Below, in pieces: positions 182 through 28,300 of a stretch of DNA of 64,000 nucleotides; the stretch's first letter is position 1, and each line of letters opens with the position of its first letter. Below the pieces are notes generated by a model. The model made no database searches, was not told the origin of the DNA, and saw only the letters and a list, made by a program, of their open reading frames with translations. The translations under genes and the position numbers were made by a program. Origin of the DNA: Amoebophrya sp. A120 (lineage: Eukaryota > Protista > Dinoflagellata); assembly GCA_905178155.1 (NCBI GenBank), contig CAJINV010000006.1, positions 4,341,938 to 4,405,937 on the forward strand, given 5' to 3'.

Positions 182-3100
182 CACCTGCGGGCGGGTTCAG
201 TGCGGACGGGGGAGCTGAGCAGGATCTAGATCTGTTGAAGCAGTCCTCTTTGTCCACCTCTGCATGGTACGCGTTTTATCGGGATATGGACCGGAATAAC
301 AACAACCTCGTCTCCATGATCGAATTCGAAGCGGTATTGTGAGGAAAAATCTTTCCTCCCCATATTGAAAGCGCATCCATCTTCTGGAAACTTGTGATGC
401 AGATTTGTGAACACAAGTCGCGTCTGTCTTGCAAGAGGGCAAGTGCAGGCTGTCCGGCACGTTATGCAGGCGATTTGTAATGCTGCAAGCCCTACAGGGC
501 AGCCGTCTGCCATGCTAGGCGCCTACACCAAAAGGCCCCGCCCTAGGGTTGCGATCTGACTGCGTGCAGTGCTCTACTGCAACACGGATTTGATTTGTGT
601 ACTCAAATACAGCATCACAAATTTCTTTGTCGATATGGGGAGGGGGGATCTTTCCTTCTGATAAGCGGGGTTGCTTTCTTTAAAATACCCCGACGAATCC
701 ACGGACGCGTCGAGTCGGAAGAATATCCTGTGCAAAAGTACCGTACGCGTAGTAATTGCAAGCATGGATGACAGGGTAAATCCGCGCTACAAATTGTTCC
801 ATGTGTCATGCTGAGCCAAGTTGTATATGCAATTTCTAGTATTATTACCTAGGTAGTGCGATGCTTTTGCAATGCATAAAGAGAAGGAAGAAGCTACTCC
901 AGTTGTTAGATAAGGACGGCTCCGGCGAGCTGACATTTGAGGAATTCGGGCAGGTCCTCGGGTTCAGCGAAAAGGAAATCTACAAGGCAAAGGATGACTA
1001 CCAGAAGAAAAACCTCGGGAAAGACGTATGCAATGTAAAAGCATCGTACTAGTATGAATTGCATTACAAATTAGCCCAGCATTACAAATTGAATTTGTAA
1101 TGCTGATTCACCTTGAGAAAGAAATTTGTAATGCATGCATGCAATTACTACGAATACGATGTTGCTTTTGCTCAGGATAAGACGGGGTGAATCGCAATAT
1201 CCGGTGGAGCGCGACGGAAGAATTTGATTTCCACGCGAGAATCAAAGAGTACGGCAGGAGGTCCCGGAGCACCACGCCGTCGCAGCGGCACTTATCCTGA
1301 GTAAAAGCCCCACACCCCATAGTCAAGTTGGGAAACCTGCAATACAAATCAACAAGCTTTGGCTGTTGCCCATCACAGGTTTTGGCTTGCAATGTGATCG
1401 CGTTTAGCTAGCGCAGCTGCGTCACAAATCTAGCATCTTATGCTGATACGAGCATCACAAATTTCAAAACAGCACTAGAGATGAATGCGTCCTCTCATGG
1501 GGCTCCTCCGCATGAGAAACATTTTAAGCATGCAGATTTGCATGACAAGAACTAAGTAAGTATGGGGTGTGACGTTTTTCCTCAGGATAGCACTCGAAGA
1601 AGATCTACACGGACGAATCCGTGCGGAAAAATATTACAGTGAAAAATGCCCCCACACGTCCGAAAGTTGCAATAATTTGTGATGCGAAGTTTCCAAATGA
1701 AAACTTTTTGTCATGCGTGAAAGAACTATGAGTCTTACCTTTCTGATGCAGAGTCTAGTCGTATACAGCATCGCTTGCACCATCACAAGAGCTGCTCTTG
1801 CTGGGATCTTTTGCAATGCAAATCTTTGCTATTCACGATTGAAGATCTGTGATGCTGATACATGCAAGAGAGCGAGTGTTTCCTTTGGAAAGGTTTGCAA
1901 TACAAATGCTTGAAGTTCATCTGGGGTGGGGGCATCTTTCATTGTCATAAAAAAGCACATGCGCATGATCTCTGCCAGCGACATGTCGCCGGTGCCGCTG
2001 TATTGTGAGGAAAAATCCCCCCTCCCCACAGTGCTCAAAACGGAAATCTGTATTGCTGATTTGTGACCACAGATCGTCTCTCTCTTGCAAGAAGGCAACT
2101 ACGTCAGAGGTGTCCGTCGCACTGCGCGGCGGATTTCTGATGCTGTTGGACCTTCATGGCAGCCGTCTAGCATGCGAAACAGAGACTATACGCAAACAGC
2201 CCCAGCACAACTCAGGCTTGCAACCTGCCTGCGATTCCATCCTGCAAGACAAAGCGAATTCGTGGACACCAATCCAGCAACAGAAATTTCCGTTTCAAGA
2301 TGGGGACGAGGGATTTTTCATTTTCATAGGCTCCTGCCGGGTGGTCGGGTGTCGAAATCAGCTTCTTCAAGTAGGTCGAGAACGAATTTGAGCTCCGCGG
2401 GAACGGGAACAAACAAGTCCATGACGAACCAGTCCTTGACAGACGAATCAACGCAGCAGGGCGGTGGAACGACGTTGCAAGACCACGCTTTTCCCGAAAT
2501 GGAGCAGCAAGACGGGCGGGGAACGAACTATATATGCAATGCAAAAGCATCGTGCTCGTATAAATGCATTACAAATTTCCTCTGCGTGGTGAGAAATAAA
2601 ATCTGTAATGCGGATTTACCTTGCCAAAGAAATTTGTAACGCATGATTGCAATTACTACGACTACGAGTACGAGTACGATAGTTTTGCACAGCATACTAC
2701 AATCGGTTTAGCAACGACAACATGCAACAGGGGCAGCAAAGTGCTGGACAGCATAGTCTATCAAATGTAAAAATGTCTGGGTCTGGAAGAATGCATGTTT
2801 GTCATGCTTGTCTGGCATGACTCTTGAATCTGTCATGCAAGTTACCCAAGAGCCCCATTTTTCTGTGATGCAGAAGCGCACTTTGTCATGCAGAATAGGC
2901 AACACCTGGAAGCTCAGAAACTTGTGATGCTGAGCCAGCATTTCTGGCCTCATCATGAGACGCCACCCAGCATCACAAGTTTCCAGACCCAGACATTTTT
3001 ACATTTGATATAGTCAACATATGAAGAAATCCAGCTCTGCAGGGACCACAAATTCAGCTCCTATCAAACGCAAAAATGTCTGGGTCTGGAAGGATGCGAA

Positions 3101-6100
3101 CTTGTGATGCATACTTGGATCACACAAAAATCTGTCATGCTTAGACAGCAAAGGGAGCTTGCTCCTTTTCCTGTCGCCGAAAGAAGATGCTTGTCATGCG
3201 GATTAAGCATTGCGAAACTGTCTCAAAACCTGCGATGCTAGGCCTTGCATGGCACACCTTCTGTGTCAAGCAGACACAGCATCACAAACCTCAGCAACCT
3301 TCCAGACCCGGATATTTTTGCAATGTATAGCTCCTTCGACGAGACAACAACAGCTGAGTTCCGCTGGCGGCGGAGCGAACAGTGCAACTACCGGGAATAA
3401 TGCGATGGAGCTCATTCCCTTGCAGGAAGACCAGCAGATGACAATGATCTCCGAGACAACGACAATTATCAACCGGTCCGCAACTATGGAACTGTCAGGA
3501 TCGAAATCAACAAAATCGAAATAATTTGTGATGCATAAAATAGATACCAGTTGGAGCCTCAGTTTCCAAGTGGCGCATGACAAATTTCAGGAGCTGCACC
3601 AAAATCCAGTCTGTCATGCTGTTTGGGCAAAGAAGGCTGCTCCTGTCGTGCTACTCTGGCAGCACATCGCCTTCCCCTAAACAGGCTTGCATCGGTCTCA
3701 TTTGCCTGCTCCCCAACACAGGCCTTACTTGCCCAACATTTTATGCATTACAAAACTTTTCGAATTTATCGCTTTCGATCCTGACACATCCATAGCAACC
3801 GCACCGACCAAAACTACTGCCGAAGAGCCGCCAAAGGAATTCGACTACGCCGCTTTTGTATCGCAAGAAAAAACTGTTCCACTGTGAACTTGTGATGCAT
3901 AAAATGGAAGATTGAACTATTTGTCTTGCTACTTCTGCAAGGCATCGGATTTTTAAGCGTGTTTTCCCTATGGGAAATGCGCGCACGGCATGTGTAACAA
4001 ACTTGTGATGCAGATCTTGCAAAATGAAAATTATCACAGTGAAGCAGTTTTTTCGTGGGATAGTTTAAGAAGAAGCAGCAAGCACCAAGCACTGCGCCAA
4101 CAACGCTAACCGACACGAAAAACCAGAACAATCCAGGGTTCAGTCGGAAGTCCCACATTGTTGACCACCCATATCGTACGAAAAAAGTGTTTCACTGAAA
4201 GGATTTTGCAAGTTTTGCATCACAAGTTTGTTCTGCATGACAGAGAAAATTTGCCCTGCGAGATTTCCAAGGGAAAGCACCGCTAAAGATCCATTGTCTT
4301 GCATGTGTGGCAAGACAAACACTTCTGAGATACATTTTCTGCATTACAAGTTCACAGTGAAACAGTTTTTTCTTGCGATAACCCGAAACGGTGGACCAAT
4401 CGGTACGGGCACGTGGATCCGAAAACGCCGAAGCAGTTTCGCGACTCGTTTGACGGATTCGGGTTGTTTTCTACGGAGCATTTGATCATGCAACAGGAGT
4501 GGAAGATCCCGCCCGGTACGGGGGAGGACGACTTTTCCCAATCGAAATGGCGATCGTCCGGTGCACCGCCCAATTGGGTCGACCCGAAGAAGGCGCTGCA
4601 GAAGAAGAAGGACAACATGATCATCGAAATGAAACTGTTCCGGGATTTATCAACTTCAAATATGTCTGGGTCTGGAAACTTGTAATGCTGAGCTGTGAGA
4701 AGCAAGTAGTGAATTCTCTGTAATGCACAGCCAAGCATGAGAAATCTTTGCGCTGCTTAGTGTTACGCTTTCCGCATGACAAAGTGCGTTTTGCATGACA
4801 AGCAAGAAGGTCTCTTCTTGGACACGCATCACAAACTCTTCCGTCATGCCAAGCAAGCATGACAAACCTTGCATCCATCCCGACCCAGACATATTTGCAA
4901 TGCATAGGATTTTCTGGAGTCCAAATACGGGGCGTACGGCTATGAAGGGATGGAGCGGATTATCCTGAGGCAAAACGATCCCACCCCATAGTCAAGATGG
5001 GAAATCTGCTACACAAATCCCTAAGCTTTGGCTGTCGCGCATGACAAATTTGGGCTTGCAATGTACTTTCGTGTTTAGCTTGTGCAGCAGCGTACCAGAT
5101 CCAGTTTGTCATGCTGATTCGAGCATGACAAATCTCACAGCACCACCGGGAAACGCCTCTCATCCTCATGGGTCTCCGCAAGAGAAACACTTCAAGCATG
5201 CAGATTTGCATTACAACTCTGGGGTGGGGACGTTTTCGCACAGGATACGGATCTTCAAAATGATGGACACGAACAGCTCTGTATCAAATGCAAATATGTC
5301 TGGGTCTGGAAGGATGCAACTTGTGATGCTGCCTTTGGACTCTACATAAAATCTGTATTGCGTGAACAGCACAAGAGGTGTAATTTGTGCTACGCGTATG
5401 GCGGACGCAGAAACTTTTCTTCAAGAAACTTTTTTTTTTTACCCATGACCTCGGCCTGTGCATGATAGGCCTTGCAACTTTATATAACGGGTTTACGAAG
5501 GGAGTAGCAAGCCCTGCCACGGCTCATGCCAAGCCAATCGCGTAAGCACTTGCGAAGACGCTTCAGCAGCAACAGGTGCTGCGGGCTTTTGGTGTTCCGC
5601 TAGTCTTGGTCCCGTGTCCCTTTCATTCCCGCACGCCAGCGCCCGTCTTAATCGGGCTTGATGCTACCGGGGCACGCGCCTTCTTGCGCAGCACACGCTG
5701 TGCGGAGGCCACCTTCTGTGTTTCACCGAAGGAGCTGACAAGTGCGCCGCCTGAGGTCGCCATCCCCCTTCGAACGTATTCTGGCGACCCTTAGGGAGGG
5801 TAAAATACGGCCCAAATAGCGTTCTCAAGTGCGGGAAGGCTTCTGCGCCGTTTCCGGAAGCAACGTCGCGGAGAAGGGCGCTGCCGGCCCTTGGCCAATC
5901 TGCCAGAACCCAGCGCGACGCCGGCGACCGTGCGCATAGACAAACCAACCCGCACGAACGGCGCCTCTTGCGCAGAGTTGCCTCGTAGCTCGAAGATGTC
6001 CGACCTCGTCTTGAGGAGACACGCCGAAAACACCAGAGGGGGGCCCCTCGGAGGGGGGTTGGGGGGGTGGGTTGCGCGACCCCCCCTGCGTCCATCATAC

Positions 6101-9100
6101 CATGCGGGCTAGCAAAAAAAGGGGGTCCCGAAGGGGGGGGGGTTTACTCCCCCCCTCCGGGGCCCCTCGAGCCGGCATTTTTGCGCTGCCCAAAAGGATT
6201 TCCCGTTGTCTGCGTTGCCGCCAGGCCGGGCGAAAGACCTGGGGGCTTAGGGCAGTGTGGGGAAGCCCGGCGGAAGAAAGCCCACTGCGCGCGGGGCTCT
6301 GCGAGGTTTTTCTCGTTCTAAGCTAGAGCGCCTCCACGCCGCTAAACCTCGGCGGGGCCCCGCAGAACAGCAGCAGAGAAGATTCAAAGCAACGCCCGTC
6401 CTTTCCTCTGTTTCGGGGGTAGTGAGGTGATGCGCCCAAGCCATGACAGCCCGTCGGCACCTCTCACACTGCTAACGCGTAGCTTTGGTGGCACGAGGAG
6501 CCGGCGATAGTGCCTGCTCTCACAGTAGCCATCACCCCCTGCGGCAGGACCCTCGCCGCACGCACAGACCCTGAGAGGCCGCTTTCCAATTGGTCGCCGA
6601 ATGCCTGAGCGGCTCAGACTGTTCGTCCTGGGTTCTCTTTCTAAGCCGGAGTCAAGGAATGGCTGCGCTAGCGGTTAAGCCGTCCTATCAAGAGGGGGCC
6701 GGCGGCAGGCGAGCAAAAATCGACGGTAGGGCCCGCGCTTGGTATTAGGATGCACAGCTATGGGCAAAAAAAAAAGTTTTTTGAAAAAAAGTTTCTGCGT
6801 CCGCCATAACGTGGAGAGGAGATTTCTCAAGCGTTATGAGCATCAGAAAGCCCTCGCAAAATCTCTGATGCTGGGGCATGCATCACAGACCTCATGGGTC
6901 ATGCAAAATCTGCATGACAAACAACTGCACTCGCCCAGACCCAGACATTTTTGCAATCCATAGTCCGACCGGTTGGGCGTTTCCGCGTTTACCGCGGCCT
7001 TGCAATCGACTCTGAAGTACCCCGACGATGGCTCGATTTCCTTCAACGCACAGAGAAGACGGGTGAATCTGTTTCTCATCATGGATTTGGACGGAATGGG
7101 GAGCTTGGATCGGTACAGAGTTGTACTACAGTTTTGTTTCAGTATCTTGTTGTGATCATGTAGTTGTCATTCTGCAACGCAAATCGCTTTTCGTTTGCGT
7201 TTCCCGCATGACAAATTCATCTAGCCTCGATGATTAAAAAAAAGGTACGAATTCTGCCGTGGTTTGACCCAGCAGCTGGACGCCGGAGTGAATCTGGACG
7301 AGAAATTATTGCAATGAAAAATGCCCCCACCCCGGAACTTGGGAGCATTTGTATTGCAAACCTTTCCAAAGGAAACACTCGCCCTCTTGCATGTATCAGC
7401 GTCGCAGATTTTCAATCGTGAATAGCAAAAATTTGTATTGCAAAAGATCCCAGCAAGAGCGGCGCTTGTCATGCAAGCGGCGCTTTATACGACAAGACTC
7501 TGCATCATGAGAAAGATTCATAGTGCTTTCATGCATGGCAAAAAGTTTTCATTTGGAAACTTCGCGTCACAAACTACTGCAAAATTCGGGGTGGGGGCAT
7601 TTTTCACTGTGATAGAAATTCACCCGCCGCCTCCAGCGGTGGGGTAACGAGAAATCGAAGTGGGTTTTGCTGGCGAAGGGGGCGAAAAATTTGAAAAAAC
7701 CACCGCGGAAAACGTGGCACGATTCTTTGTCCATCGTGAAGCCCGAGAACCTATTGAGAGGAAAAATCCCCCTTCCCCATATTGAAGAGGCATCTTTTCG
7801 AAAATTGATGTTGCTGATTTGAGGTCACAAATCACATTTGTTTTGCAAGAAGACCAGGGCAGAAGCTTCCGCCCCATTACGGAAGCGATTTGTCATGCTG
7901 TTGGGCCTAAAGGGGAGCCGTTTGCCATGCTGAGCAACTAGACGCATACGCCCCTACCTAGCCTGGCGATCTGGCCGCAGTGCTTCCCTGCAATACAAAT
8001 CTGATTTGTGTACGCAAATCCAGCATCACAGATCTCTTTTTCGATATGGGGAGGGGGGATTTTTCCTTTTGATAGAACCCGGTGTCCTATCTAGCAAACG
8101 TCGGACTGTCCGGGGGAAACTCCACGTCGGTGCAGGCGAACAGCGAGGAATTAGCCCGGGCGCAACGGTATCAAATGCAAATATGTCTTGGTCTGGAACA
8201 AACTTGTGATGCAAGGACGGGAATAGTGAGCACACTGTAATACGCTACACAGCATGACAAGTTTTTCCGTGGTTCAGAGTTGCGCACCGCGCATGAGAAA
8301 CTGCGTTTTTGCATGACAGACGCGAGGACCTCCTCGCGGGCACGCAATACAGAGTTCAGAGTCATGCCAGACTAACATGACAAATCTCGCAATCTCCCAG
8401 ACCCAGACATATTTGCAGTTCATAAAAGGGCGAACGCGTTTATCAACGTGAGGAAGAAGCTAGAGCCGATCTATTCCCGGCCGGGCACGATGGGAAACAG
8501 CTATGCATTGCAAATATGTCTGGGTCTGGATGGTTGCAACTTGTGATGCTGCCTTTGGATTCTACACAGAATCTGTCTTGCATGATCAGCAAAAGAGGCC
8601 CATTTTTTGCTACCCGGAGAGGGCTCTCATGCAGTATAGGCATCAGAAAGCCCTCAAAAAATTTGTGATGTTAGGGCATGCATCACAGACACCATGGGGC
8701 ACGCAAAATGTGCATGACAAGCGCTGCACTCTTCCAGACCCAGACACATTTGCATTTGATAACAGCGGGTGCGCGACCAGTTTCGGGCCCCCAAGACCGA
8801 CTACCAGTCCGGATCTGTCGCAGCTGTTTAACATCCTATATCAAAAGGAAAAATCCCCCCTCCCCATATCGAAAAGGCATCCGTTCGAAAATCTGTGATG
8901 CTGATTTGTGGCCACAAATCAGGTCTGTCTTGCACGAGAGCAACGCCAGAGCTTTCGCCGCTTTACGCAGGCGATTTGTAATGCTGCTGCACCAACAGGG
9001 CAGACGTCTGCCATGCTGAGCGCCCACCTCTAGCCAGCCCCTTCCAGGCTTTTTATCTGCCTGCACTCCTATACTGCAAGACAAAGCTGAAGCTGATTTG

Positions 9101-10209
9101 TGTACACAAATCCCGCAACACAGATTGCCACTTTGATATGGGGAGGGGGGTTTTTTTCTTTCGATATCCTGCCCAAATCGAGCAAGGATTCCTCCGGGGA
9201 CAGTAACCGCGGCGTTTTGTCCGCACTAATGAACGCTTCGAAACCAAAAATGAGTGAGAAATCTTTCCTAGCGGATGAGCACAGCCTCTATGCATTGCAA
9301 ATATACCTGGGAGGTCGGGAGGAATGCAAGTTTGTCATGCTCGGCTGGTATGACTCTTAACTCTGTGATGCATGAGCAGGAAAAAAGCCTGCCCCTCGCC
9401 TGTCAACATGCAAAAACGCAGTTCTTTGTCATGCGCAAAGCGAAACACATAGCAGCTCGACAACTTGTCATGCTTGGCCGCGTATTGCAGTGCTTACCCA
9501 TCAATCACAACTTTGCATCACAACTTTCCAGACATCCTGGGCTATTTGCAGTGCATAGCCTCATGCCGGCAACTACGGGGGATGCGGAGGATGATGATGA
9601 AGTGTCGGACATGCTTATCAAATGCAAAAATGTCTGGGTCTGGAAGATTTGTAGACTTGTCATGCATATTTTCCAGAAGCCACGATGTCTGTGATGCATG
9701 CCGTAGCATCACAGATGTGTATCGGGCTTTGTGATACCTCTACCGCATGAGAAATACCCTCTCCACGTAGGACAAACCCGACCCCTCTTGCTGGTCATGC
9801 AATACAATTTTTTTTAGAATCCACAGACAGCATCACAAGTTGTGAGCTTCCAGACCCAGACATTTTTGCATTTGATAATGCTGAAAAACCTGCAAAAGCG
9901 GTTTTTGCAACAGGAGCACGTGCGGGAAGAGCGGAAATCACGGGCCTTGTCCGAAACGGTTGACTTTGCGGAAATGATGTGCAGGATATGCAATGCAAAA
10001 GCATCGTACTAGTATAAATTGCATTACAAATTAGCCAGCATTACAAATTGAATTTGTAATGCTGATTTGCCTTGAGAAAGAGATTAGTAAATGCATGGCT
10101 GCGATTACTACGAGTGCGATACTTTTGCAGTGCATACAGGAGTGCGAACAGCAACGCGATCGCGCAGATGAGCAGCGTCGCGAACTTTGGAGTACAGATT
10201 TCGTCGTGA
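182..10209 (+). CDS. Multi-EF-hand calcium-binding protein, 5'-partial, split by 23 complete introners and one GT-AG intron (802 aa visible)
   Basis: Removing each TA..TA element plus one 5-bp DR gives a continuous ORF (184-10209 minus 7617 nt = 2409 nt) ending at TGA 10207-10209. EF-hand-like loops: DRNNNNLVSMIE, DKDGSGELTFEE, DTNSSDRLGVSA, DLDGMGSLDRYE. The two EF-hand pairs share an LKYPD linker. Confidence 0.85.
335..663. mobile_element. Introner family B (representative; ~315-330 bp; TIR TAT.....GGAAAAATCCCCCCTCCCCATA)
   Basis: DR AGCGG/AGCGG; removal joins MIEFEA to GLLSLKYPDE. Other copies: 2001-2328, 7752-8074, 8839-9166, 35664-35978, 50413-50733, 57193-57513, 61718-62039. Confidence 0.92.
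1027..1179. mobile_element. Introner family C (representative; ~145-165 bp; TIR TAT....TGCAAAAG(T/C)ATCGTACT)
   Basis: DR AGACG/AGACG. Other copies: 724-878 (opposite orientation), 2533-2696, 9987-10136, 16794-16938, 17998-18148, 18188-18346, 20857-21019, 22160-22308, 25931-26078, 46819-46968, 53599-53748. Confidence 0.92.
1293..1589. mobile_element. Introner family D (representative; ~275-300 bp; TIR TATCCTGAGTAAAAACGTCCCCACCCCA)
   Basis: DR GCACT/GCACT. Other copies: 4961-5247, 19600-19878, 21212-21493, 25601-25874, 26131-26420, 31704-31985, 39228-39506, 43663-43942, 50785-51063, 57565-57843, 63867->64000. Confidence 0.92.
1632..1949. mobile_element. Introner family E (representative; ~305-320 bp; TIR TATTACAGTGAAAAATGCCCCCACCCC)
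   Basis: DR AAAAA/AAAAA. Other copies: 7307-7614 (opposite orientation), 17664-17976, 31357-31662, 47541-47858, 54321-54638. Confidence 0.92.
2759..3010. mobile_element. Introner family A (representative copy; ~245-295 bp; TIR TATCAAATGCAAA(A/T)ATGTCTGGGTCTGGAA); most abundant family, with several internal subtypes
   Basis: DR TAGTC/TAGTC. Other copies: 3062-3329, 4648-4906, 5282-6962 (hosts the nested element), 8169-8424, 8502-8761, 9289-9557, 9616-9877, 13421-13682, 15991-16251, 16309-16582, 18871-19132, 19951-20214, 22359-22642, 23317-23574, 23747-24008, 24394-24660, 24901-25154, 25265-25533, 27171-27456, 27770-28014, 28514-28790, 29432-29687, 29799-30067, 30397-30674, 41815-42078, 42133-42394, 42642-42888, 45230-45481, 46491-46746, 47040-47333, 48029-48292, 48394-48655, 51159-51432, 51708-51969, 52482-52740, 52856-53110, 53272-53526, 60052-60306, 60390-60651, 60919-61196, 61398-61659, 62615-62883, plus copies at +6780 in the duplication. 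Confidence 0.93.
3485..3794. mobile_element. Introner family F (representative; ~305-316 bp; TIR TATGG..(G)TGTCAGGATCGAAATC)
   Basis: DR GCAAC/GCAAC. Other copies: 15303-15618, 26761-27074, 48985-49292, 52083-52389, 55765-56072, 58863-59169, 62265-62576. Confidence 0.92.
3859..4062. mobile_element. Introner family G (representative; ~200-220 bp; TIR TATCGCAAGAAAAAA(C/G)TG; several subtypes)
   Basis: DR TTTTG/GTTTA. Other copies: <1-181, 4172-4380, 16989-17199, 31029-31243, 36732-36941, 43040-43258, 43328-43532, 44963-45175, 48745-48947, 55525-55727. Confidence 0.9.
5397..6808. mobile_element. 1412-bp non-autonomous TIR element nested inside a family A introner
   Basis: ~50-bp TIR TATGGCGGACGCAGAAACTTTT...CCCAT / ATGGGC...AAAAGTTTCTGCGTCCGCCATA; DR ACGCG/ACGTG. 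The host introner sequence resumes exactly after it. GC-rich interior with no credible ORF. Confidence 0.9.
7113..7244 (+). other. Canonical GT-AG intron (132 nt) flanked by a GGTAC direct repeat
   Basis: CG|GTACAG...AAAAG|GTACGAA; removal completes the EF-hand loop DLDGMGSLDRYEF. Confidence 0.85.
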
Positions 10210-13200: not shown

Positions 13201-13392
13201 GTGGAGCTGGAGATTACTTCAATATAGCAGGAGAGCGGAGTAGAGGACATCGTCGATCAAGAAGAACCCTTGGCGCTAATAGTCGTCTGTTTTTAGCCGG
13301 AAGACGCGCTGACGGGGGCAGAAGCGACAGCGGCAAAATATTAAATCTCGGGGAAAAAAGATTGTTCCCGAAGAAGACGACCAACTCCGAAG

Positions 13393-16300
13393 ATGCAGGT
13401 CTTTTATTACACCTTCCTGCTATCAAATGCAAGAATGTCTGGGTCTGGAAGAATGCAAGATTTGTCATGCATATTTCTCATGACCCATGATGCCTGTAAT
13501 GCATGACCTAGCATCGCAGACTTTTAGAGGGCTTCCTGATGAACCTTCCGCGTGAGAAATGCCCTGTTCGTGTAGCACAAATTGCACCCCTCTTGCTGGT
13601 CATGCAATACCAATTTTTTTGGAGTCCAAAAACAGCATGACAAGTTGCAATCTTCCAGACCCAGACACTTTTGCAGTTGATGCCTGCTATCATTTCTCAA
13701 CATCGCCCACGTAGTTTGGGCTCGGGGTGGTTTGCACCACCAGACGGCGGTCGATACTTTTCCGACTGGAGCAAGGGGAGAATCTTCATCCCACGAGGAA
13801 CTACCAGGTTCGTTGCAACATGCAATCGGTCCTCGCCAAGATAACAATGGAAGAAGTGAAACCGAAGAACTACGTGGCGAAGAAGTAGGACCCTCCTCAT
13901 TCGCTGCTCATCTACTTATTTCCAAGAAGGATGCGCAAGGCAACCCGGAGGTACCCAAGAAGGATGCGCAAGGCAACCCGGAGGTGGAGGAGGTACTAGG
14001 GAGTGGCGCGGGCAGCTCGCAGCTTGGAGTTTCCGGTGCTGCTGCTGGCGAAGATGAAGAGAGGGGTTATGATCATGACCTCGATCATATTAGAGCAGCA
14101 GAGACCAGCACAGCCACTGCGTCCTCTCGACGTCCGGGGGTCGTCGTGTCGACCCCGCCCTTCGATATAAGCAGGACCTCTGATGCTAAACAAGATCCTC
14201 ACACTTCTATAACCCCTGCTGAGGACGAGGACGACGCCATAGAAGGGCTCGAGCGGGCCCCCGCGGGTTGGTCACGCACCATTTCTGCTTCGACAATCTC
14301 GAGCGCCCAGGACAACGAAGGAGAGGTGGACAAGAGTGTCTACTATTTTCCTTCCAGTGTCACTAAAGCCTTCAGTACGCCGAATATAGTATCGAAAACT
14401 CCGGATGAACCGACGTCCTTTCCCGGCACACCAGTCAGAAGTACTACCCCGAAACAGAGTCCATTTCGCGATGAAGCTGCAGCAGTTCCTGGTGTAGAAG
14501 TCGGAGGGATAGTTAGCGCGGCCGGAGTTGTGGGTTCGTCTTCGTTTTTGTCTTTTGATGATCTTCCCATGGGCCGCGGGTCGACACCAGCGGCTAAGAA
14601 GCAGGACAAGGAAATACAGCAACTAGTATCACAGGGCTTATCCTTATTTTTTCCACCGGGATCGTTTAGCTCAACATTCAGAGCTGGTGGTGCAACTAGT
14701 ACAACAACTACGAAAAAAGCCAGCCGAAGGAGAATCAAAAACCTGCCTTTGTGGCAGGTTGAGACTAAAAATCCGGAACAACAAGAGCCAGCCATCGTGC
14801 GCATGTTCAAACAGCGCAGAAGGGAACGGCTGGAACAGAAACGACGGAAACGACAGGAAGAGCAGGAGAGATTTATTTCCTTTGAGGGTCCGAATTCCTC
14901 AGATTTTGCGGCACCAAAAGATGGAGGTTTGTTTTCGGGAAGTAGACCACCGGAAAGTGTAAGTGATCAAGACGTTGACTCCAATGCGGGCAGCTCTACT
15001 GGCAGAAGTTCCTTCGGCCGCGAAAGAACTACGCCAGGAAAACAAGAACGTCGTGAAGGCCAAGGCCACCAGCGTGTCGGAGGACAGCAGACCAGCTCTA
15101 TGGCTCAACGTGTCATGCAAGATTCAGGACTCAACTCTATCATTGGCCGGTTTCTGCCGACCAACCTGAATTTTGCCAAAAACGGGTTCTACAACGAAAC
15201 GGAATTTGACAACGACAGTGATGTGGATGAGTCTTCACGAAAAAGTAGAAGTACTAGTGCTAAGAACAAGCGGGGGAAGAAGAATAAATTTAGCAGCAAC
15301 GGTATGGAAGCGTCAGGATCGAAATCGTCAAAGTTGAAATAGTATTGCGATGCATAAAATGCAACGCAAAAACTGCCTCTATTGCAGAGGACGCAAGGGA
15401 TGCAGATTGTAAGCCGTGTGAGCGGTAGAAACTGAGCTGCTAAGGTACTAGCATGACAAATAAAGGCGTCTTCCTTCCTCAAACAGCATTACAATTCGGA
15501 TTTCAGTTGTCTACCCAAATTTGTCATGCGCCACTTGAAAAGTAGCCGCCAACTGGTATCCGTTTCGTGCATCACAAATTGTTTCAACTATGACGATTTC
15601 GGTCCTGACACTCCCATAAACGGACTGGTGGATCTCGACACCGCGTTTCAGTTATGAGAGTGCACAAGAACAAGTCCCCGTGGAGGTCCCCCGCATTTGC
15701 AATGCAAAAAACCAAGCACACGTCTTATTGTATAGCTTTATTTAGCGCTGTCTGCATGACAAATTTATTTGGGACGACCTCAAGCACCACTACAATCCGG
15801 TTGTGCAGTAGATTTGTGATGCTGAAGGCACATTACTGCGCTGTTTTTTATTGTGTTGCTGTGTATAATGCCCTACAAATAATGAGGGCGGGGGGGGGAT
15901 GGACTTGGACAAGAACTTGTGCACGGTCATATCAGTTGTCTCAAGTGTCGAGAGACATTCTTTTCACCAAGAAGGAGCACGCTTTCGAAATATCAACTGC
16001 GAATACGTCTGGGTCTAGTAGAGCGCAAGTTTGTCATGCTCGGCTAGCATGACTCTCAAGTCTGTCATGCGCGTTACCCAAAAGCCCCACTTTTCTGTCA
16101 TGCAACAACGCAGCTTGTGCTTGTCATGCTGAGTAGACAACACCTAGCAAGAACTCAGAATCTTGTCATGCTGAGCGATCACTTGTGGCATCCTCATGAT
16201 TCGCCACTCAGCATCACACGTTGCCAAGCGCAGACATATTTGCAATGCATACGAAACCTGCTTAGCCTATTTGAAGAAGCTGGACAAAATTGAGAGCAGC

Positions 16301-19300
16301 GAAGACGATATTAAATGCAAATATTCACCCTGGAGGACGTCTGGAAAGTTGTGATGCTGGACTGTGGATGTTGGAAACACTTCCGAATGCAGCCAAGCAG
16401 GACAAGTTTGCAGAGCCAACGCTTTCTCATACGCAGCCCGCATGCGAAGCTGTGTTTTTGTCTGACAAATCAAAAGAGGGCGCGACCTTTGTTGGTCCAG
16501 GAATGGACAGATTGCACAGGAATGGAAGACCAGCATTACAAGTTCCCACTTTCCAGACCATTAGACATTTTTGCAATGGATAGACGATGCGTGGGTGGCG
16601 TTGATGACGGAGCTGTCGAAGACCCTGCACACGACCGGTGGGAGCGTGAATTATCGGAAATTCCTCGGAGCTCACGAGTTGAAGGAGCACGATAAATTGC
16701 TAGACCACTGGCGGACCTACGACAAGATGGCGATCCAGGAAGAAAGACAGGCAGCAGGTCTGGAGGGAGAAGTAGTTATAAATGCGTCCGATCTATGGAT
16801 TGCAAAAGTATCGTACTCGTACAAATGCATTACAAATTTCCTCAGCATGAGAAATAAAATTTGTAATGCGGATCTGACTTAACAAAATCATTTGTAATGC
16901 ATGATTGCAATACGAATGCGATGCTTTTGCACAGGATACGATCAGGACAAGTACCTGATTGCGAAATTGGTAGAAGTTTTCGACGCAGTATCGCAAGAAA
17001 AAACTGTCTCACTGTGAACTTGTGACGCAGAAAATGGAACACAGAACTCTTCGTCTTGCATTGCAAGACCTTGTATTTCCAAGCGTGTTTTATTCCCTTG
17101 GGAAGCGCGGGTGACAAATTTTCAGTGTCATGTTGCGCAAACTTGTGATGCAGATCTTGCATCAAAATCATCACAGTGAAACAGTTTTTTCGTGGGATAC
17201 GCAGACAGCGCAGATGGAGCTGATGCGAAAAGTAGAAGTCCGCCATCGTATAATTCGCCGCACAGGACGAGTACGACAACGTCTACAAAAACTACTTCCA
17301 AGCGAAACACCAAAGTTTTCGAGTTTGAAAACGGGGCGGATGAACTCACCTACGCTTTCTTGAAACAATCCTCCTGCATTGAGTACTTGCAATATGACAG
17401 TGCACAACTCCCCTCGTCTGTATGGTATGAATAGCAATACACACACCAGCGCACATGGAGCCTATGCATGACAAATCTATGTACCTAATCTAGTGCTGTT
17501 TAACGGGCTTCCAGAATTTGTCATGCATAATAGTGATACAAGGGAACAACTGGAATATTGGATTTTGCATGAGAAATGAGAACGAGGGAGAGTTGTGCAC
17601 TTCCATATGCAACTCGAGTCGCAAAACACGGTTTCGGAAACAAACAAGTTCAAACGGCTCATCTATTACAATGAAAAATGCCCCCACCCCAGAATTTGCA
17701 AAAGTTTCTCATGCATAAGGTTTTCAAATGCAGAGCTTTTTATCTATGCATGACAGGACTACGAGCCTTTCTGATGCAGAATCTAGTCATGTCGTGCGAG
17801 GCATCTTTTGCATAACAGACCCGGCTGCTGTTGGGCTCCTTTGCAACACAAATTTGAGCTATTCAGCATGAAAAATTTGTGATGCTAAGATATGCAAGAC
17901 GACGAATGTTTCATTTGGAAAGGTTTGCAATACAAATGTTCCCAAGTTCTGGGGGGGGGCATTTTTCATGGTAATATCATCACCGAGGCCGGGGTGTTAT
18001 GAACTGCAAAAGTATAAGTATCGTATTCGTATAAATGCATTACAAATTTCCTCAGCATGAGAAATAAAATTTGTAATGCAAATTTACCTTAACAAAAGGA
18101 TTTGTAATGCATGATTGCAAAACGAGTACGATACTTTTGCACAGAATAGGTGTGCACGACTTCGGAAACTTGGACCAGGAGCGAAGATATGAATTGCAAA
18201 AGTGTCGTACTAGAAGTAGTAGTTGCAATATAAATTCGCTTAGCATGACAAATGGAATTTGTCATGCTGATTTGCCTTGGGAACCAGATTTGTAATGCAT
18301 GACTGCGATTACTTTTACTACGAGTACGATACTTTTGCACAGGATAGAAGAGGAGGGGCTGCAGGTGGCTCACATGGCGTACAACCGGTTCTTGTTTTAC
18401 AAGTATGAGAGTGCTGCACAACTCCCCCTCCCCCTCATTTGTATTGCATGGACAGCAATACAAACACCCGCACCTGTGGGGCCTGTGCATGAGAAGTCTT
18501 CCATGCGCGTACTGTAGTACTGTCAGGGCAGCTTCCGGAATCTGTCATGCAAACAGTACCACAGAGCAGCAAGTGGATTTGGCATTTTGCATGACAAATC
18601 AGGGGGAGGGGGAGTTGTGCACTGTCACAACAAGCGGGACCAGGACGAGAAAGAGAAACTCAAACTGCAAGAAGAACTACAAAGGGAGAAATTACGGAAG
18701 CGACTGGAACATCAAAGCGCAGCCGAGAAAAATCCTCCTTGGAAGGAGCACCAGCATAAAAACCATAATACTATGCCGAATCTGTTAGAAAAAGATGAGC
18801 CATTTACATTTTCGCTGCATCAAGATGTCCGTCGTGAAGTGGTAGAGCCAGAACAGCAGAGGAAGCCCAGTATCAAATGCAAAAATGTCTGGGTCTGGAA
18901 GAATGCAGCTTGTGATGCTGCATTTGGATTCCAAAAAGATCGGTATCGCATGAGCAGCAAAGGGAACGCATTTTTTGCTACGCGGAGAAGGCATTTGTCA
19001 TGCCGAATAGGCATCAAGAAGCCCTCAAAAAATCTGTGATGCTAGGGCATGCATCACAGACATCATGGCTCATGCAACACGTGCGTGACTTGTCTCAGAA
19101 TCTTCCAGACCCAGACATTTTTACAGTTGATACCCAGTAAAGAAGTGCGATTTTTTACTGAACCAGCAATGGACCACCACCTTCACATCGTGCAAGAACC
19201 ACCGCAGCAACTGCTTGCAAGAGGTGAAGACGGCTTTAATACTGTTTCGTGCGTCGAGGGCAGCAAGAAGCTCGATTGTGGTGCTGTAATTATTCCGGGT

Positions 19301-22300
19301 AGTACGACGTCGACAAGTACTAGCTATTACAGCGCCGCTGATCCTCCACCAGGCGCAGCAGGCCCGCTTTTACTACACGAGGAGCACAAGTCTTTGCATC
19401 AGAATTGTCACAACAAGGTTGATGACCTTATGGCCGACCTCAAGTCCATCTCAAAACGGAATGAAACACTTCACCTAACACCTTCAGAGGAGATGGATGC
19501 AGAATCATGTCTCCTTGACCTGCAGCTTCCGTTCCCGCGCCAAATTACCGGCTCCACGGCCGCGCCAGCGAGCTCGATCGCGACTTTCAGGTCGACAAAT
19601 ATCCTATGTAAAAACGTCCCCACACCATAGTCAAGATGGGAAGTCTGCAACACAAATCCCCAAGTTTTGGGGGTTCTGCATGACAAGTTTCCATCTGCAG
19701 TGTAGTACTGGCTGGCAAGGAAAGCCGCATGACAAAGCCATTTTCTCGTCCTGTTTACAGCATTACAAATTCCAAAACACGACTGGAAATGCCTCTCATG
19801 GAAGTGCGCATTACAAATCTTCCTGTCATTGCACATTTGCATGACAACTCTGGGGTGGGGACGTTTTTACACAGGATAACAAATGCCCATAATTCATCTC
19901 CTCATGATCCCGGAGGTCCCCCTTGTAGTTCCACGTCGCGCGACCCCCGCTATCAAATGTAAAAATGTCTGGGTCTGGAAGGATGCAGAGGTTTGTGATG
20001 CAGCTGTGGCATGACCCAGAAGGGCTACCATGCACGCCCCAGCATCACAAGTTTTTAGAAGGTTTCTTAATGCGTAATCCGCATGACAAGGCCCTTCTTT
20101 CGGTGGCCAGAAATGTGCAGCTTTTGGCTTCCATGCATGACAGATTTTTGAGTCATGTGAAATGCGGATCGCAAGTTCGCATCCTTCCAGACCCAGACAC
20201 TTTTTCAGTTCAGACCCGCGTAGGTGGAGCGACGAGGACTCTGCGGCGTACAAGCACAAGCGACAACTTCCTGGCTGCGGAGGATGATGAATCAGGCAGG
20301 AACGGTGGAGGTTTCGGTCACCGTGGTCCTCCGATGTTGCAGTCCACCTGCTCTGGAGGTGCTCTAGTACTGCACGACGATAGTTTTAAAAATAGCGAGG
20401 AGCCTGACCCAGCAGAAGTAGAACGTCGAGAAGTGCTGTCGCCCACAACATGGCCCTCGTCTTCAGCCCTGGGCAGGAGCCGTAGCAGCTGCAGTTCTCG
20501 CGGCCGCGGCCCCCGGTCTTGTTCATCTGCCGTCGGGTTTTTATCCCCGATCGGAGATCATGATCAACAACGCGTTCAACATAGTTGTACCAGCGACGAC
20601 AGAAATAATGCAGACGAGGATGAAGATAGAAGCGCCGAAGCCGATCATACTATTGAAGATTCAGGTAAAGAGGACGAGGACCTTGAACATCTCCCGGAGA
20701 TGCTGGGAGAACGGTCTTTTTGGACCCGGTCGATGTCACCCGAAGGAAGCGTCAGGTCTGCTAGCGCATCGAACCACACAGCAGCGCCAAACACTTCGTA
20801 CAGCTTCTCGGCTCCTCGTCCGGTGGAACAAGCGACCATTGCTTGTTCGCCGGCTTTATGAATTGCAAAAGTATAATCCGATACTCGTATAAATGCATTA
20901 CAAAATTCCTCAGCACGAGAAATGAAATTTGTAATGCGGATTTACCTTAAGAAAAAGTAAAAGATTTGTAATGCATGACTGTAATCACGACGTCGAGTGC
21001 GATACTTTTGCAGTTGATAGGCTTTATCTTCTGGCGCTGCTTCCTCCCCCTATTTGATGTCTTCGAGAACTTCCGTACTGGCCGCGACTCCGGAATTGCA
21101 CCCCATGTCGTGGAGTGAAGATGTATTTTATACACCTGGCGCAGATCATGATACAGTAGATGTTCACGGGGACTCGTCTCCGGTGCTGTCCTCAGAACAC
21201 CACCCCGATCATATTCTGAGTAAAAACGTTCCCACCCCAGAGTTGTCATGCAAATCTGCATGCCAAAAAAGTTTCTGATGCGGAGCGCCATGAGAGGGAT
21301 TTTCTAGTCGTGTTTTGGAATTTGTGATGCTAGAATCAGCATGATATGCAAGATCTGTGATGCTGCTGAACGACCTAAACACGACAATTACACCACGAGG
21401 ACAAACTTGTCATGCGAAACAACCAAAGCTGGCTGATTTGTCTAGCAGATTTTCCATGTTTACTCTGGTGTGGGGTCGTTTTTCCTCAGGATAGATCAGT
21501 CGTGCAGGTGGAGCGAAGATCAGTCCTCTCTCGGTGTTGAGCAGCTGCACGGGGGGGCCACAGAACCGCGGAAGGTCTCTAGTACTGTCTCTTGCAGCAA
21601 GGGCCGCCACATCAAGACCTTTTCGTGCACGCGCGACGACGAAATCCCGCAGCTCGTCCTGGGGCCGAGTTTTGATAGTCCTACTCCGATGGAACAAGAA
21701 GAAGCGCGCGACGACGAAAGTCCGCAACTGGTCCTGGGGCCGCGTGGCTCGGACGATGTTGAGCTAGATGGTGACAGGGAACAAGTACAGGAAACTTCTT
21801 CATCCCCTGCTCGCCGACGTCCCCCACCCAGCATCTGGCTAGTTCGCGAATTGAAAATCGGGCTTTGCACCGAGTTCGTCCCCTACAATGCGCGGTCCAA
21901 TGCGAAATTTTTGCTGGAACTTTTAAGGACGACGGAAAGTTATAAGAGCGAACATGTTCTTGCGGGCTCGCAAAGGAAAAGTGATGAACCAGCTGCACAA
22001 GTGTCTCGTCGTGAACATCTCGCTGCGGCAGGAGCACCATCTTCAGGCCAACATCTACAACTTCCCCTATTGAGGAAAGAACCCGGCTGGGCAGCACCAG
22101 CGACACAAGTTCTTGTGCGGGAAAAGTCGGAGTTTTTGAAGTACAAAAAGGGCATTTTGTATGAACTGCAAAAGTATCGTACTCGTATAAATGCATCACA
22201 AATTTTCTCAGCATGAGAAATAAAATTTGTAATGCTGATTTGCCTTAAGAGAGAGATTTGTAATGCATGATTGCAATTACTACGAGTACGGTACTTTTGC

Positions 22301-25300
22301 ACAGGATATTTTGGTGGCGGTCTTGGCGATTGCGCAGGACCTGCAGGAGAATCAGGTTTATGCATTGCAAATATCGTCCCTGGATCGATCTGGAACAGTG
22401 CAACTTGTGATGCTGCATTTGGATGCTACAAAAAATCTGTATTGCATGAGCAGCAACACCAGCAGTCAAAGAAATTTGGCTACGCAGTAGATCGGGCATG
22501 TGTCATGCGGGATGTTGCGCATCGATGAGCGCTGAAAATAAAATCTGTGATGCTAGGGCATACATAACAGACATCGTGGATCGTGGACAATGTGCATGAC
22601 AAACTTGTTCTCTTCCAGACCCAGACGTATTTGCAGTTGATAAGGTTTCCATCGTGAAGCGGCGGAGCTGGCTGCAGGAGCAAAAACTGGCGGTAGAGGG
22701 GCGGATATGACAGTGCACAACTCCCCTTCGTTCCCATTTCTCATGCAAAATACCAAATCCACGCTTTCCCTCCTGTCACTATTATGCATGACAAGTTTAT
22801 GATCTGGTAGCCCAAATAGCACTACACTCCAGTCGTGCAAAAAAAATGTCATGCAAAACCGGCACTGTTGCTGATGCTTGTATTGCCGAGTTCATGCTAT
22901 ACAAATGAGGGGGAGCAGGGGGAGCTGTGCACTGTCATAGCGGAGGGCGAGAGAACAGAAAGTAGAAGATCTAGAGCTTCATCGTCCATGGGGTACTAAT
23001 GATTATACAGGTCGTTCCTCGACGTGGGAAGAAGCTGCGACAGGAGTTCTTAGTGCGGGTGCAGGTGCAGGTGCAGGAACAACGGGTCCTTTCGGAATCT
23101 ACCGCGGCGGAGCGCACGACGCGGTCAGCGACCTTCCGCGGCAGCAATTGGGTTCTTCACCTGCTGCGCCGCATACTGCGACCCCCGCTCCTGCAGTCGC
23201 TGCACTAGCATCGTCTTCTTTATTCCTGTCTCAACATGAAAGACAAGTCACCGGCGAAAGTTCCGGCAAGATTTCTTCCGGTTCGCAGCAAAGCACAATC
23301 AGTGATAGTACGAGCGTATCAAATGCAAATATGTCTGGGTCTGGAATGTTGTGATGCAAGTCACTGAATGATAAGCACACTGTAAAAATGCGCCACCAAG
23401 CATGACAATTTTTTTCATGGTTCTGTGTTGCGTATTCCGCATGAGAAACTGTGTGTTTGCATGAGAGTCAAGAGGAGCTCTTGGTTGCCACGCAGTACAG
23501 ATCCCAGAGTCATGCCAGACTAGCATGACAAGTCTCGCAATCTCCCAGACATCCAGGGATATTTGCAATCCATAAGGCGACCATAATTTCGATGCAGGTG
23601 CTGCTCAACATCATCAAACCGGTGGTGAACCGGAGCAGAGTGGCGGTGGTACAACGACCCCTGGAGCAGCAGGAGGTCCTGCTTCCTCTACTATGAAAAA
23701 AACCCCCTCCCACTTTTTCCTCGAGATACGCCCGGATTATAATGACTATGCATTGCAAATATGTCTGGGTCTGGAAGGTTGGAACTTGTGATGCTCACTT
23801 TGCACTCTAAAAAAATCTGTATTGCATGACCAGCAAGAGGAGCCCAGTTTGTGCTACGCGGGGAGGGCATTTGTCATGCGGGATAGGCATCAGGAAGGCC
23901 TCTAAAAATATGTGATGCTAGATCATGCATTACAGACATCCTGGGTCATGCAAAATATGCATGACAAACCTGGTAACCTTCCAGACCCAGACATTTTTGC
24001 ATTTGATAATGACCAAGAGGAAACTCAAACTACTACCGGTACCACGCGAGCGCTAAAATTCAACACGAAAACGGGCACCTTGCGCACTGTGCCCGCGGCC
24101 ACTGTACAACATCAACCTGCGGGAACTACATTAACAGCGGAAGGAGGTTCTGCAGCAGCAGGAGCAGCACAACAAGTCCTCTGGGCGCCGCGACGCTCGG
24201 CGTATTCCAGTCGTACGCGCGAAGCACTGTTCGGGGAGCAAAGATTTGCGGGGCAGCAGCGACGGCAGGAAGGGGAAAACGGTTTTTTACAAGTAGCGCA
24301 GGAAGTAGAGAATCAAGGTCAAGAAATAAGCTCACCCACAGCGCTCCTCGATGACCTGTCACAGCAAAGTCTGGTGAACACGCCCGTGGAGCGTATCCAG
24401 AGCAAATATGTCTGGACGTCTGGAAACTTGTGATGCTCAGTTGTGGATCATGGAAACTACACTTCCGAATGCAGCAAAGCATGACAACTTTCCAGAACGC
24501 TTTCTCATGCGCAGCCCGCATGAGAGGCTGCGTTTTTTTATGACAAAAGAGGCTGCCGCTGCGGCTGCGCCTTGTGTTGGTCATGCAATACAGATTGCAC
24601 AGGAATGGAAAACCAGCATTGTTTCGTCCAGACCTCCCAGACATCTTTGCAATGTCGATAGAGCAGCAGTTGCAACGAAAGGCTATGCTGCCAGTCTGGA
24701 TCTACTACCTAGCTCTGAAACTGGAGACAGATGTAGAGACTGCGGAGTTGAATGAGTTTATTGAGAAACGGTACGCAGTTCCAGCATCGGTCGATGAACA
24801 AGACGAGGAGGGGGCCGCAGATTCGCGCGACCTTGTGCGACGACGAGGAGCAGTAGAGCAACTAGACAAGGAAAAAGAAAAATTGCAGAAAAACCACACT
24901 TATGCATTGCAAAAATGTCTGGGTCTGGAAGAGTACAAACTTGTATATGCGCATTTCAGAACACAGAAAAATCTCTCATGCATAGGCAGCAAAAGTTGCC
25001 CTCTTTCTGTCACCAAAATTCAGGGATTTGTCATGCGGATTCGGCATTGCAAACGCTTCTCGAAACCTGTGATGCTAGAGCTTCCATGCCAGCCCTTCTG
25101 TGTCATGCAAAAGCAGCATGACTCTTCCAGACCCAGACATTTTTGCAGTTGATAACACGGGTAACGACGTTGATCTCGGGTACGTTCTTAGTGTCATGTT
25201 GCGGGAGCGGCTGACCGCGCCGCGGTATTACGACATCGTCGCAAAATTGCACTTCCAACTTGGGTATCAAATGCAAATATGTCTGGGTCTGGAAGATTCC

Positions 25301-28300
25301 AAGATTTGTGATGCAGTAGTTCCAAGCTCCACCACGTTTGCAATGCAGGGCATAGCGTCACAGGTTCTGCAGCCCCTTGGTGATGCCTATTCCACCGCAT
25401 GAGAAATGCTCTCTCAGTATGGCCAGCAATGCACAGCTTTTGCAAGTCATGCAACACAGATTTCTGTATGATTCGCAACATGCATCTTCACAAGTTCGCA
25501 GCCTTCCAGACCCAGACATATTTGCACTTGATCTTGGGCAAGAGCGGACCTGGATGCGGCAACAAGAAGAGCGCGAACTAGCGGCCGCCAACGCAGCTGC
25601 TATCCTAAGTAAAAAACGTTCCCACCCCCGAGTCAAGATGGGCGACATCTCGCAACACAAGCCGGGAAGTTTTGGGAGTCACGCATGACATACTATTCTA
25701 GTGCAGTTTAGCAAGTGTAGCCGCATCACAAAGCCATCCTCTCGTGCTGTTTACAGCATTACAAAGTCCAAAACACGATGAGAAATGCTTCTCATGGGGA
25801 TGCGCATTGCAAATCGTTCTGTGACTGCAAATCTGCATGACAACTATGGGGCGGGGACGTTTTTCTTCAGGATAGCCGCTGCAGCAGGTTCATCATTTCC
25901 ATCTTCCACTCGTCGCTCCTACGCCTCGGTTATGCACTGCAAAAGTATCGTACTAGTATAAATTGCATTACAAATTAGCCCAGCATTACAAATGAAATTT
26001 GTAGTGCAGATTTACCTTGCGAGAGAGATTTGATGCATAAATGCAATTACTACGAATACGATACTTTTGCACGGGATATCGGTCTCTTCCCTTCGCCGCC
26101 GGAAAAGGTACAAAGAGAAACTGGAGCTGTTATCCTGAGTAAAAACGTCCCCACACGACTAGAGTTGTCACGCAGGTTCAATGGCAGGAAGATTTGTGAT
26201 GCGTATCCCCATGGTAGGCATTTCCGATTGTATGTTTTGGAATTTGTAAAAATGCGGTAAGCAGGACAAGCAGATGGGTTTTTAATGCGGCTACCCGCCT
26301 TGCCGACCTGCACTACACTACGGGCTGCAGCTTGTCATGCGTGACGCCCAAAACTTGTCGCTTTGTGTTGCGAATACTCCCCATCTTGACTCTGGGGTAG
26401 GGACGCTTTTACTCAGGAGAGCTGTTTCGTAAATACCTCGAGCAGGAGAAAAACAGGCAAGACAGTGAGCAAGTTATGGTCGAGCTTCCTCTGCCGAACT
26501 TTCTTGCGGTCTACATCGCGGCTGTGCAATGTCGAGTCTCGAAGACTTCTTGTCAGACCGATTTAGAAGCATTAATGTCAACTACCGACACCGAGACGGA
26601 GCAGGAGGTCCTTGGACAGGACCACAGGAGCGTCGCCGTTAGTGCGCCGCGGTGCTCTGGCGGAGTTGATCAAAAGATTGTTCATCCTCTTGACCCTAGC
26701 CTCAGCAGCGCCAGCACTTTTGTGGCCGGAATGCTGAAGCAGTACGCTGTAACGCGTGTGTATGGGAGTGTCAGGATTGAAATCGACAAAGTTGAAGTGA
26801 TTTGCCATGCATAAAATCGATACCAGTTGGAAGCCCAATTTCCAAGCGGCGCATGAGAAATTTTCGGAGCACTGGGATCCAATTTGTCACGCTGCTTAGG
26901 CACAGAAGACTGCTTTTGTCATGCTACTTTAGCAGCTCTATTTCAAAGAGCCCTAAACAGGCTAAGAACAAGCGGCCTCACTTGCCATCCCGGCAAGACA
27001 GGCACTTCATGCCTTGCATTTTATGCATGACAAATCATTTCAAGTTTGTCGATTTCAAACCTGACGCTTCCATAGTGTGCCGGAAGTGTATACGCCCGCA
27101 ATTGGCGGGCACGAGTATGCTCACGGACGGAGCTCTTACCGGCATGATGCTGAGCTGTTTTACCGAAGAATATGCATTGCAAATATCGATCTGGGTCTGG
27201 GTCACCGGAATGTAGTACCTTGTCATGCGCAATCTCGATTACAAAAAAATCTGTGTTGCATGAACGCCAAAAGCTGCCCACTTCTTGCTAGGCAGAAGGC
27301 GGATTTGTCAAGCGGAATGGGCATGAGGAAGGTCTCGCGATGAAATCTGTGATGCTTCTGTACGCATTCCACACGCCATGTGCGTGGTCCGCCGCGGAGA
27401 TGCATGACAAGTTGCGTACTGTTCTTCCAGACCCAGATCGATATTTGCAATGGATAGAGAATTGAGTCGTTCTATTTCGGGTTCACAATCACGGTGAGAT
27501 CCCTTTCCGTTCGTGACATCGCCGATAACGTGCCAACGTTTTCCGCGGCCTGGGAAAAGCTGCAGCGGGAGTCCTTTCTTGTGGAAATTCAGGAGCAGAC
27601 AACCGGTAGAAGTTCCGGACGAGGTGGACCCCATGGAGGCACGACAGATGCCGATCATGTGTTTTTTGACCAAGAGCACAGCTTCCCCAGAAAGACAACC
27701 CTCTTTCCTGTAGACATTGAACATCGGGAGCGCGAAGCGACGAAAACCTGGTGGCATCCCGTTCACGCATATGGATTGCAATTATGTCTGGGTCTGGAAG
27801 GTTGCAACTTGTGATGCTGCATTTGGATACTACAAAAATCTGTATTGCGTGAACAGCAAAAGAGGTCCAGTTTTTGTCACGGCGAGAGGGCATTTCTCAT
27901 GCGGTATAGGCATGAGGAGGCCCGCACAAAATCTGTGATGCTAGGACATGCATCACAGACGTTAGGAGTCATGTAAACTGTGCATGAGGGACCCAGACAT
28001 ATTTGCAATGCATAACGCATTGACGGGGCACCTGCCAAAACTACTCCACGTGGAGGCGGCCGTGCCTGGCTTTCTAAGAACCTTCTCCAAGATGAAAAAT
28101 GCCGCAGGACAAGAAGTAGACCAGGGCGGACAGCAACAAGAACCACGTATCGATTATCCCGCCCTCCTGACCCGGCTCTTTGCGCAAATGAGCGCGCTTT
28201 TGCAAGAAGCGAGAAGGGCTACAACTACCGGGCTGGAAGGAACTAGATCAAACGACGATGAGCCACCGGGTGGTCCGGAACAGAACCAAGCGATTAAGCC

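Follow-up and report, generated by a model that had tools for sequence, protein, structure and literature searches.

A TIR-less GT-AG intron of Amoebophrya sp. A120 as a probable introner fossil, and the cut register of its intact neighbours

The focal intron in an introner-rich window

Among the introns required in the first three genes of this 64-kb window (the whole stretch of DNA analysed), 72 of 73 are introner elements (IEs) with terminal inverted repeats (TIRs), and a single one is TIR-less. Is this intron, spliced between two copies of GGTAC, what remains of an introner, or an ordinary intron with another history? The case gains value because non-canonical splicing in Amoebophrya is unexplained. 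The count of 73 comprises 24, 38 and 11 introns in genes 1-3, and short in-frame introns could escape it.

The window is rich in elements of the form 5-bp repeat, TAT...ATA, 5-bp repeat. A first pass called 98 IEs, 72 of them with a perfect 5/5 direct repeat (DR) and two later dropped as mis-called; IEs total ~31 kb of the window, and the shortest intact ones measure 145 nt. By their sequence, these elements fit the A120 introner elements of Farhat et al. 2021 (PMC7789003), as described in the portions of that paper available to us. Two elements, at 35664-35978 and 36732-36941, sit in AT-rich, apparently intergenic DNA, and IE insertion is therefore not restricted to coding exons. A 1,412-nt element at 5397-6808, present in one copy in the window, is nested in the IE at 5282-6962; it has 43-nt TIRs (95% complementary), a 4/5 repeat, a GC-rich hairpin near 6100-6180 and a longest ORF of 159 aa. 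Subtracting 38 and 11 IEs from the genes at 13345-32293 and 38701-45607 leaves open frames of 3,091 and 1,408 codons, respectively, encoding low-complexity protein.

The focal intron interrupts gene 1, and its immediate surroundings are as follows.

6967-7112, plus strand: upstream exon of the EF-hand gene (P0001), from RNA contigs, spliced model and protein match
7112-7116, plus strand: left direct repeat GGTAC (final exon base and first four intron bases), likely a target-site duplication (TSD), from sequence
7113-7244, plus strand: TIR-less intron, 132 nt, GT..AG, phase 2, in the Arg codon of an EF-hand-like loop (D-R/Y-E, intron at the slash), from RNA joint and spliced model
7244-7248, plus strand: right direct repeat GGTAC (final intron base and first four exon bases), from sequence
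7245-7305, plus strand: downstream exon of the EF-hand gene, from RNA contigs and spliced model

The upstream exon matches an A120 protein with EF-hand Pfam matches (P0001, 1,005 aa) at 100% and an A25 protein (P0002) at 77%; these were the sole matches in protein searches with the focal gene. Removing 23 IEs and the focal intron from gene 1 reproduced the RNA contig coordinates and recovered the last 803 aa of P0001. The GGTAC copies described in the initial annotation are present in the sequence, and contigs from two sequencing runs, X6 and X4, connect 7111 to 7244 with five letters that fit on either flank, confirming the removal of the intron from mRNA. We took these runs as RNA (their type is guessed), which is supported by their contigs also skipping neighbouring IEs. 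Raw-read runs X10 and X11, with 7 and 0 placed reads, bear on neither point. Six cuts are equivalent at this joint and GT..AG arises in the +1 cut alone; because the RNA does not separate the six, GT-AG at the actual cut rests on consensus.

The intron thus carries the 3-5 nt border repeat of an IE (GGTAC twice, RNA slide of 5). A slide of at least 5 nt arose by chance in 0.4-4% of canonical introns simulated with assumed rather than A120-measured splice-site weights (0.4-0.5% without proto-splice bias, 1.5% with G/G bias and 3.6-4.1% with AG/GT bias). An 8-20 nt TIR starting with TAT, by contrast, is lacking, as the initial annotation had it: the best terminal 15-mer pairing is 7/15, against at least 10/15 in 110/110 IEs, and intergenic tiles have a modal pairing of 8. 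Failing on its TIRs, the intron is not filed as an IE. Its 3' end is a run of A followed by AG, with no pyrimidine tract. The initial annotation had also called it the only conventional intron, which holds in that it is the single TIR-less one among the 73, but not for its dinucleotides, since the IE at 8168-8428, in a register allowed by the RNA, likewise reads GT..AG and has intact TIRs.

Introner motifs inside the focal intron

IE families that otherwise cannot be aligned have one internal motif in common. It occurs on either strand at ~9 copies per kb, in most cases beginning 31-46 nt inside each element end; judged from sequence, the arrays may be candidate transposase-binding sites. Several copies of IE-type motifs lie in the focal intron.

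7150-7157, minus strand: degenerate internal IE motif TTGTGATC, 33 nt inside the left repeat, from sequence
7164-7171, minus strand: degenerate internal IE motif TTGTCATT, predicted to pair with 7208-7214
7164-7214, plus strand: hairpin predicted inside the intron, with two motif copies in opposite orientation closing it, from the fold of 7160-7219
7174-7184, plus strand: fourth IE-type motif GCAACGCAAAT, 0.35 per kb in IEs and 0 outside, a pattern picked only after the alignments were inspected
7206-7215, plus strand: perfect IE motif GCATGACAAA, from sequence match, its core ending 29 nt inside the right repeat

The perfect motif, whose retention the initial annotation had reported, was borne out as introner-specific: 93 copies occur in 31.2 kb of IE DNA and none in 32.7 kb of non-IE DNA, with one in the focal intron, where it lies within a 15-nt exact match to the IEs at 31779 and 23869. 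The 7-mer core of the motif occurs three times in the intron, compared with 0.028 expected from non-IE DNA. The outermost motifs are oriented as in IEs and stand 33 and 29 nt inside the GGTAC copies, while the distance from motif to repeat in IEs clusters at 31-46 nt. The same arrangement at both ends is found in 23 of 88 motif-bearing IEs, the motif being absent from 5 of 93 IEs.

Beyond these motifs, the likeness is limited. In the alignment to IE families that the initial annotation had proposed, run with HMMs of eight families, three scored the intron above all 1,000 shuffles, three were equalled by 2-5 per 1,000 and two gave no hit, the best score being 9.4 bits and no family among the eight being assigned. 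The ten best local scores against 82 IEs averaged 31.7 vs 22.6 (0/200 shuffles), and the single best was 37, compared with a median of 243 between IEs. The ends did not rise above controls, with shuffles equal or better in 124/200 for intron nt 1-57 and 177/200 for nt 108-132; nt 58-87 were marginal (30/200), and end-to-end alignment to IEs did not exceed motif-fixed controls (88/150). Homology is accordingly confined to ~20 nt, 50 at most, within a comparison of about 90 IEs in eight families, against 1,954 families given in the available portions of PMC7789003. A colinear match to a ~210-nt IE family, seen by eye, was lost against shuffles.

Folding of the whole intron is no stronger than that of shuffles (z=-1.13). 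The stretch 7160-7219, picked after that earlier fold, gives z=-3.51, with 0/200 shuffles as good, and the predicted hairpin leaves the intron ends apart. In an Rfam scan of 5200-7400, all matches were below gathering scores and outside the focal intron.

Cut register of intact introners

The initial annotation read the focal junction as a sign that introners are generally cut after nucleotide 1 of the repeat. Where the two DR copies of an element are unequal, the mRNA reveals which copy supplied each base, and this provides a simple way of fixing the true cut. Junctions could be read for 19 of the 23 gene-1 IEs (334-10140), as 12 joints and 7 piece ends, and seven of these IEs have unequal copies. 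The cuts that the RNA allows, counted as repeat bases left upstream, are given below.

IE 724: unequal DR, cuts 0-4
IE 2001: unequal DR, cuts 1-4
2532-2700, plus strand: IE (listed as 2533), DR copies differ, cuts 4-5, from an RNA piece end
IE 4172: unequal DR, cuts 0-4
5281-6966, plus strand: IE (listed as 5282) containing the nested element, DR copies differ, cuts 4-5
8168-8428, plus strand: IE (listed as 8169), GT..AG at the nucleotide-4 cut, TIRs intact (18/20), DR copies differ, cuts 3-5
8838-9170, plus strand: IE (listed as 8839), DR copies differ at position 5, cuts -1 to 4

A cut after nucleotide 4 is the sole one that fits 7/7 informative IEs, and nucleotide 1 is excluded by 3/7, refuting the nucleotide-1 rule. 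In intact gene-1 IEs the cut falls after the fourth nucleotide of the 5-bp repeat, such that each intron consists of 1 nt, TAT...ATA and 4 nt; this register is based on one gene, on contigs rather than reads from two runs of one study, and on an assumed common register, with four of the seven values coming from one-sided piece ends. At the IEs spanning 2528-2701, 5277-6967 and 8164-8429, translations from cuts 1 and 4 are identical, and the repeat mismatches, at positions 3-4, are all three synonymous.

In the portions available to us, PMC7789003 calls IE splice sites 'variable', with unknown borders, but speaks of four bases of the repeat lying upstream of the 5' end, so the nucleotide-4 register may be partly implicit in its figures. 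In support of that register, T occupies +2 in each of the nine predominant non-canonical end pairs listed for A120 in its Table S4, which an intron start one base ahead of TAT would predict, although aligner bias is possible. Among the titles and abstract openings surveyed, none concerned the A120 cut register; it may already appear in figures S19-S23 of PMC7789003.

We tentatively propose, as a possibility we favour less than its negation, that a fixed ruler sets the cuts of A120 IEs, placing them 1 nt ahead of the 5' TIR and 4 nt beyond the 3' TIR irrespective of the dinucleotides there. Since the junction is degenerate owing to the 5-bp target duplication, insertions with GT-AG available in a different register, a few percent, could silently become canonical and shed their TIRs. 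On this view the focal intron would have completed the hand-over, and fossils of this kind would make up many of the A120-specific canonical introns. If true, a fixed register would regularise the reported diversity of splice sites, the conserved +2 T being the first TIR base, and would improve gene models.

GT-AG-compatible insertions form a testable class for whether splicing needs TIRs. Six TIR-bearing IEs in the window can be read as GT-AG in some register, those at 8168-8428 and 31703-31989 in the nucleotide-4 register. The expectation that such elements have more degraded TIRs was not upheld at the scale of the window: pairing was 16.2/20 (n=6) for compatible and 16.3/20 (n=86) for other IEs (p=0.54), in a small set of elements found through their TIRs. 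TIR mismatches of the G-U and A-C types stood at 71:68, giving no sign of RNA-level selection for pairing.

Origin of the focal intron

We consider it probable that the focal intron is a decayed A120-type introner whose GGTAC duplication provided a canonical splice register, after which the TIRs became dispensable. In the proposed course of events, a TAT...ATA element would have inserted at GGTAC, duplicating it, and would at first have been removed in the usual nucleotide-4 register. Given a repeat starting with GGT and an element whose last base is A, moving both cuts 3 nt upstream produces GT..AG ends and an identical mRNA, so ordinary recognition could have taken over with the protein unchanged. 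With a canonical register on offer, the TIRs could then have been lost, and the element would have shrunk to 127 nt with its sub-terminal motifs kept; the intronic repeat bases may survive because they now serve as splice-site bases. Intact IEs with a GGT-starting repeat, at 17998 and 52482, would represent the predicted starting state. The hand-over of an introner to the ordinary spliceosome through a GT/AG-supplying target, as the initial annotation had put it, is thus favoured by the motifs, the IE-like layout and the 5-bp repeat, but is unproven, the ends having no IE homology. Also counted for an IE origin is the 15% of A120 canonical introns reported with both direct and inverted repeats in the available portions of PMC7789003; counted against it, the exon side of the GGTAC repeat can be put down to the conserved Arg-Tyr codons. 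Uniform neutral decay accounts poorly for a 15-mer left perfect next to TIRs that are wholly gone; deletions, an unsampled family or selection would be needed.

The chief competitor, which we regard as unlikely, is an old canonical intron common to A25, into which an IE inserted later and decayed to a motif block of ~65 nt, GGTAC being a coincidence born of proto-splice-site bias and the Arg-Tyr codons. Genome-wide, A25 shares the positions of ~19% of A120 introns, and 98.6% of this shared set is canonical, compared with 35% overall, so more than half of the canonical introns in A120 appear to be common to A25 (~19% of 35%). As conserved-position introns are mostly canonical, an old origin is a priori the more likely for a GT-AG intron lacking TIRs. 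The site moreover sits within a stretch in which A120 and A25 scarcely differ, IE homology is confined to the middle of the intron, and IEs do enter introns and non-coding DNA, as at 5397-6808 (nested), 35664 and 36732. Two scans of metagenomes for the orthologous locus yielded no relative. Against an old intron, it needs two independent rare events, the chance 5-nt slide and a remnant whose outer motifs happen to keep an IE-like orientation and distance from both repeats. Taken jointly, the repeat, the motifs and their spacing seem to us likelier under a whole-element origin, which we hold to be probable, than if a remnant were nested in an old intron, which we doubt.

Three further accounts fare worse. 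An IE-derived intron that never left the nucleotide-4 register, with an NNAGG-type 5-mer duplication and a donor made of G plus a mutated TAT as in 8168-8428, would make GGTAC incidental and the register shift unnecessary; its GTAC start is one change from GTAT, and the IEs at 8168-8428 and 31703-31989 are GT-AG in just this register. Its repeat copies match at only 3/5, however, the perfect GGTAC slide is again left to chance, and motif distances of 36 and 26 nt suit the 31-32 nt mode of IEs slightly worse than 33 and 29, making it improbable. Intron gain by double-strand-break repair has been proposed as a mechanism (PMC3020277), and capture of an IE fragment as filler would yield, in one step, a short direct repeat and no TIR in a window of which 31 kb of 64 kb is IE. 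We think this very improbable: a captured piece should align continuously with an IE, yet only ~20 nt do, and opposed motifs at IE-like distances from both ends would be unexpected. Finally, the motifs could be a general A120 splicing signal, also used by canonical introns and uninformative on origin, given that they are kept although the ends are unrecognisable and that no U1 snRNA turned up in A120. The motif shows no preference for either strand (48 plus, 46 minus) and IE families occur in both orientations within plus-strand genes, which suits a DNA-level or symmetric role, and we give a splicing signal scarcely any credence.

The favoured origin, in which the focal intron is probably an IE fossil, has parallels in other systems, as far as the available portions of the cited papers describe them. 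Introner decay into ordinary introns and splice sites derived from TSDs are already published. Within A120 itself (PMC7789003), the elements around the focal intron have inverted repeats of TAT, 7 nt and an A run, and 5-bp DRs, while the focal intron has no inverted repeat; that paper has the splice sites as variable, whereas nucleotide 4 here fits all seven informative IEs. Fungal introner-like elements (Collemare et al. 2013, PMC3609843) similarly come to resemble ordinary introns as they shorten and their sequence and structure erode, but are canonical from the start and without TSDs or TIRs, whereas most of the A120 parent class is non-canonical and the focal intron would have changed register. 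In TSD-recruiting introners (Gozashti et al. 2022, PMC9860276; review PMC11282704), one or both splice sites come wholly or partly from the TSD and mRNA length is kept, as would be the case here; recruitment is family-wide there and would here be a chance option for GGT-starting targets (~1 in 64), alongside a separate non-canonical register. In euglenids, the intermediate introns of Milanowski et al. 2016 (PMC4770533) are non-conventional hairpin introns with GT/C-AG ends, possibly convertible to conventional ones; they belong to another lineage and retain the end pairing that the focal intron has lost. One decayed introner adds little to this picture, and more use can be made of the fixed cut register that emerged alongside it.

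Elsewhere in the window, 38700-53560 yielded, among the matches listed to sequencing-run contigs, repeat-derived pieces alone and no informative junctions, those from run X9 being IE-like. Within gene 4, 46706-53512 is repeated at +6780 as a near-perfect 6.78-kb tandem duplication, the copies showing one mismatch before 53520 among the matches listed; on sequence grounds this would be either a very recent event or an assembly artefact.
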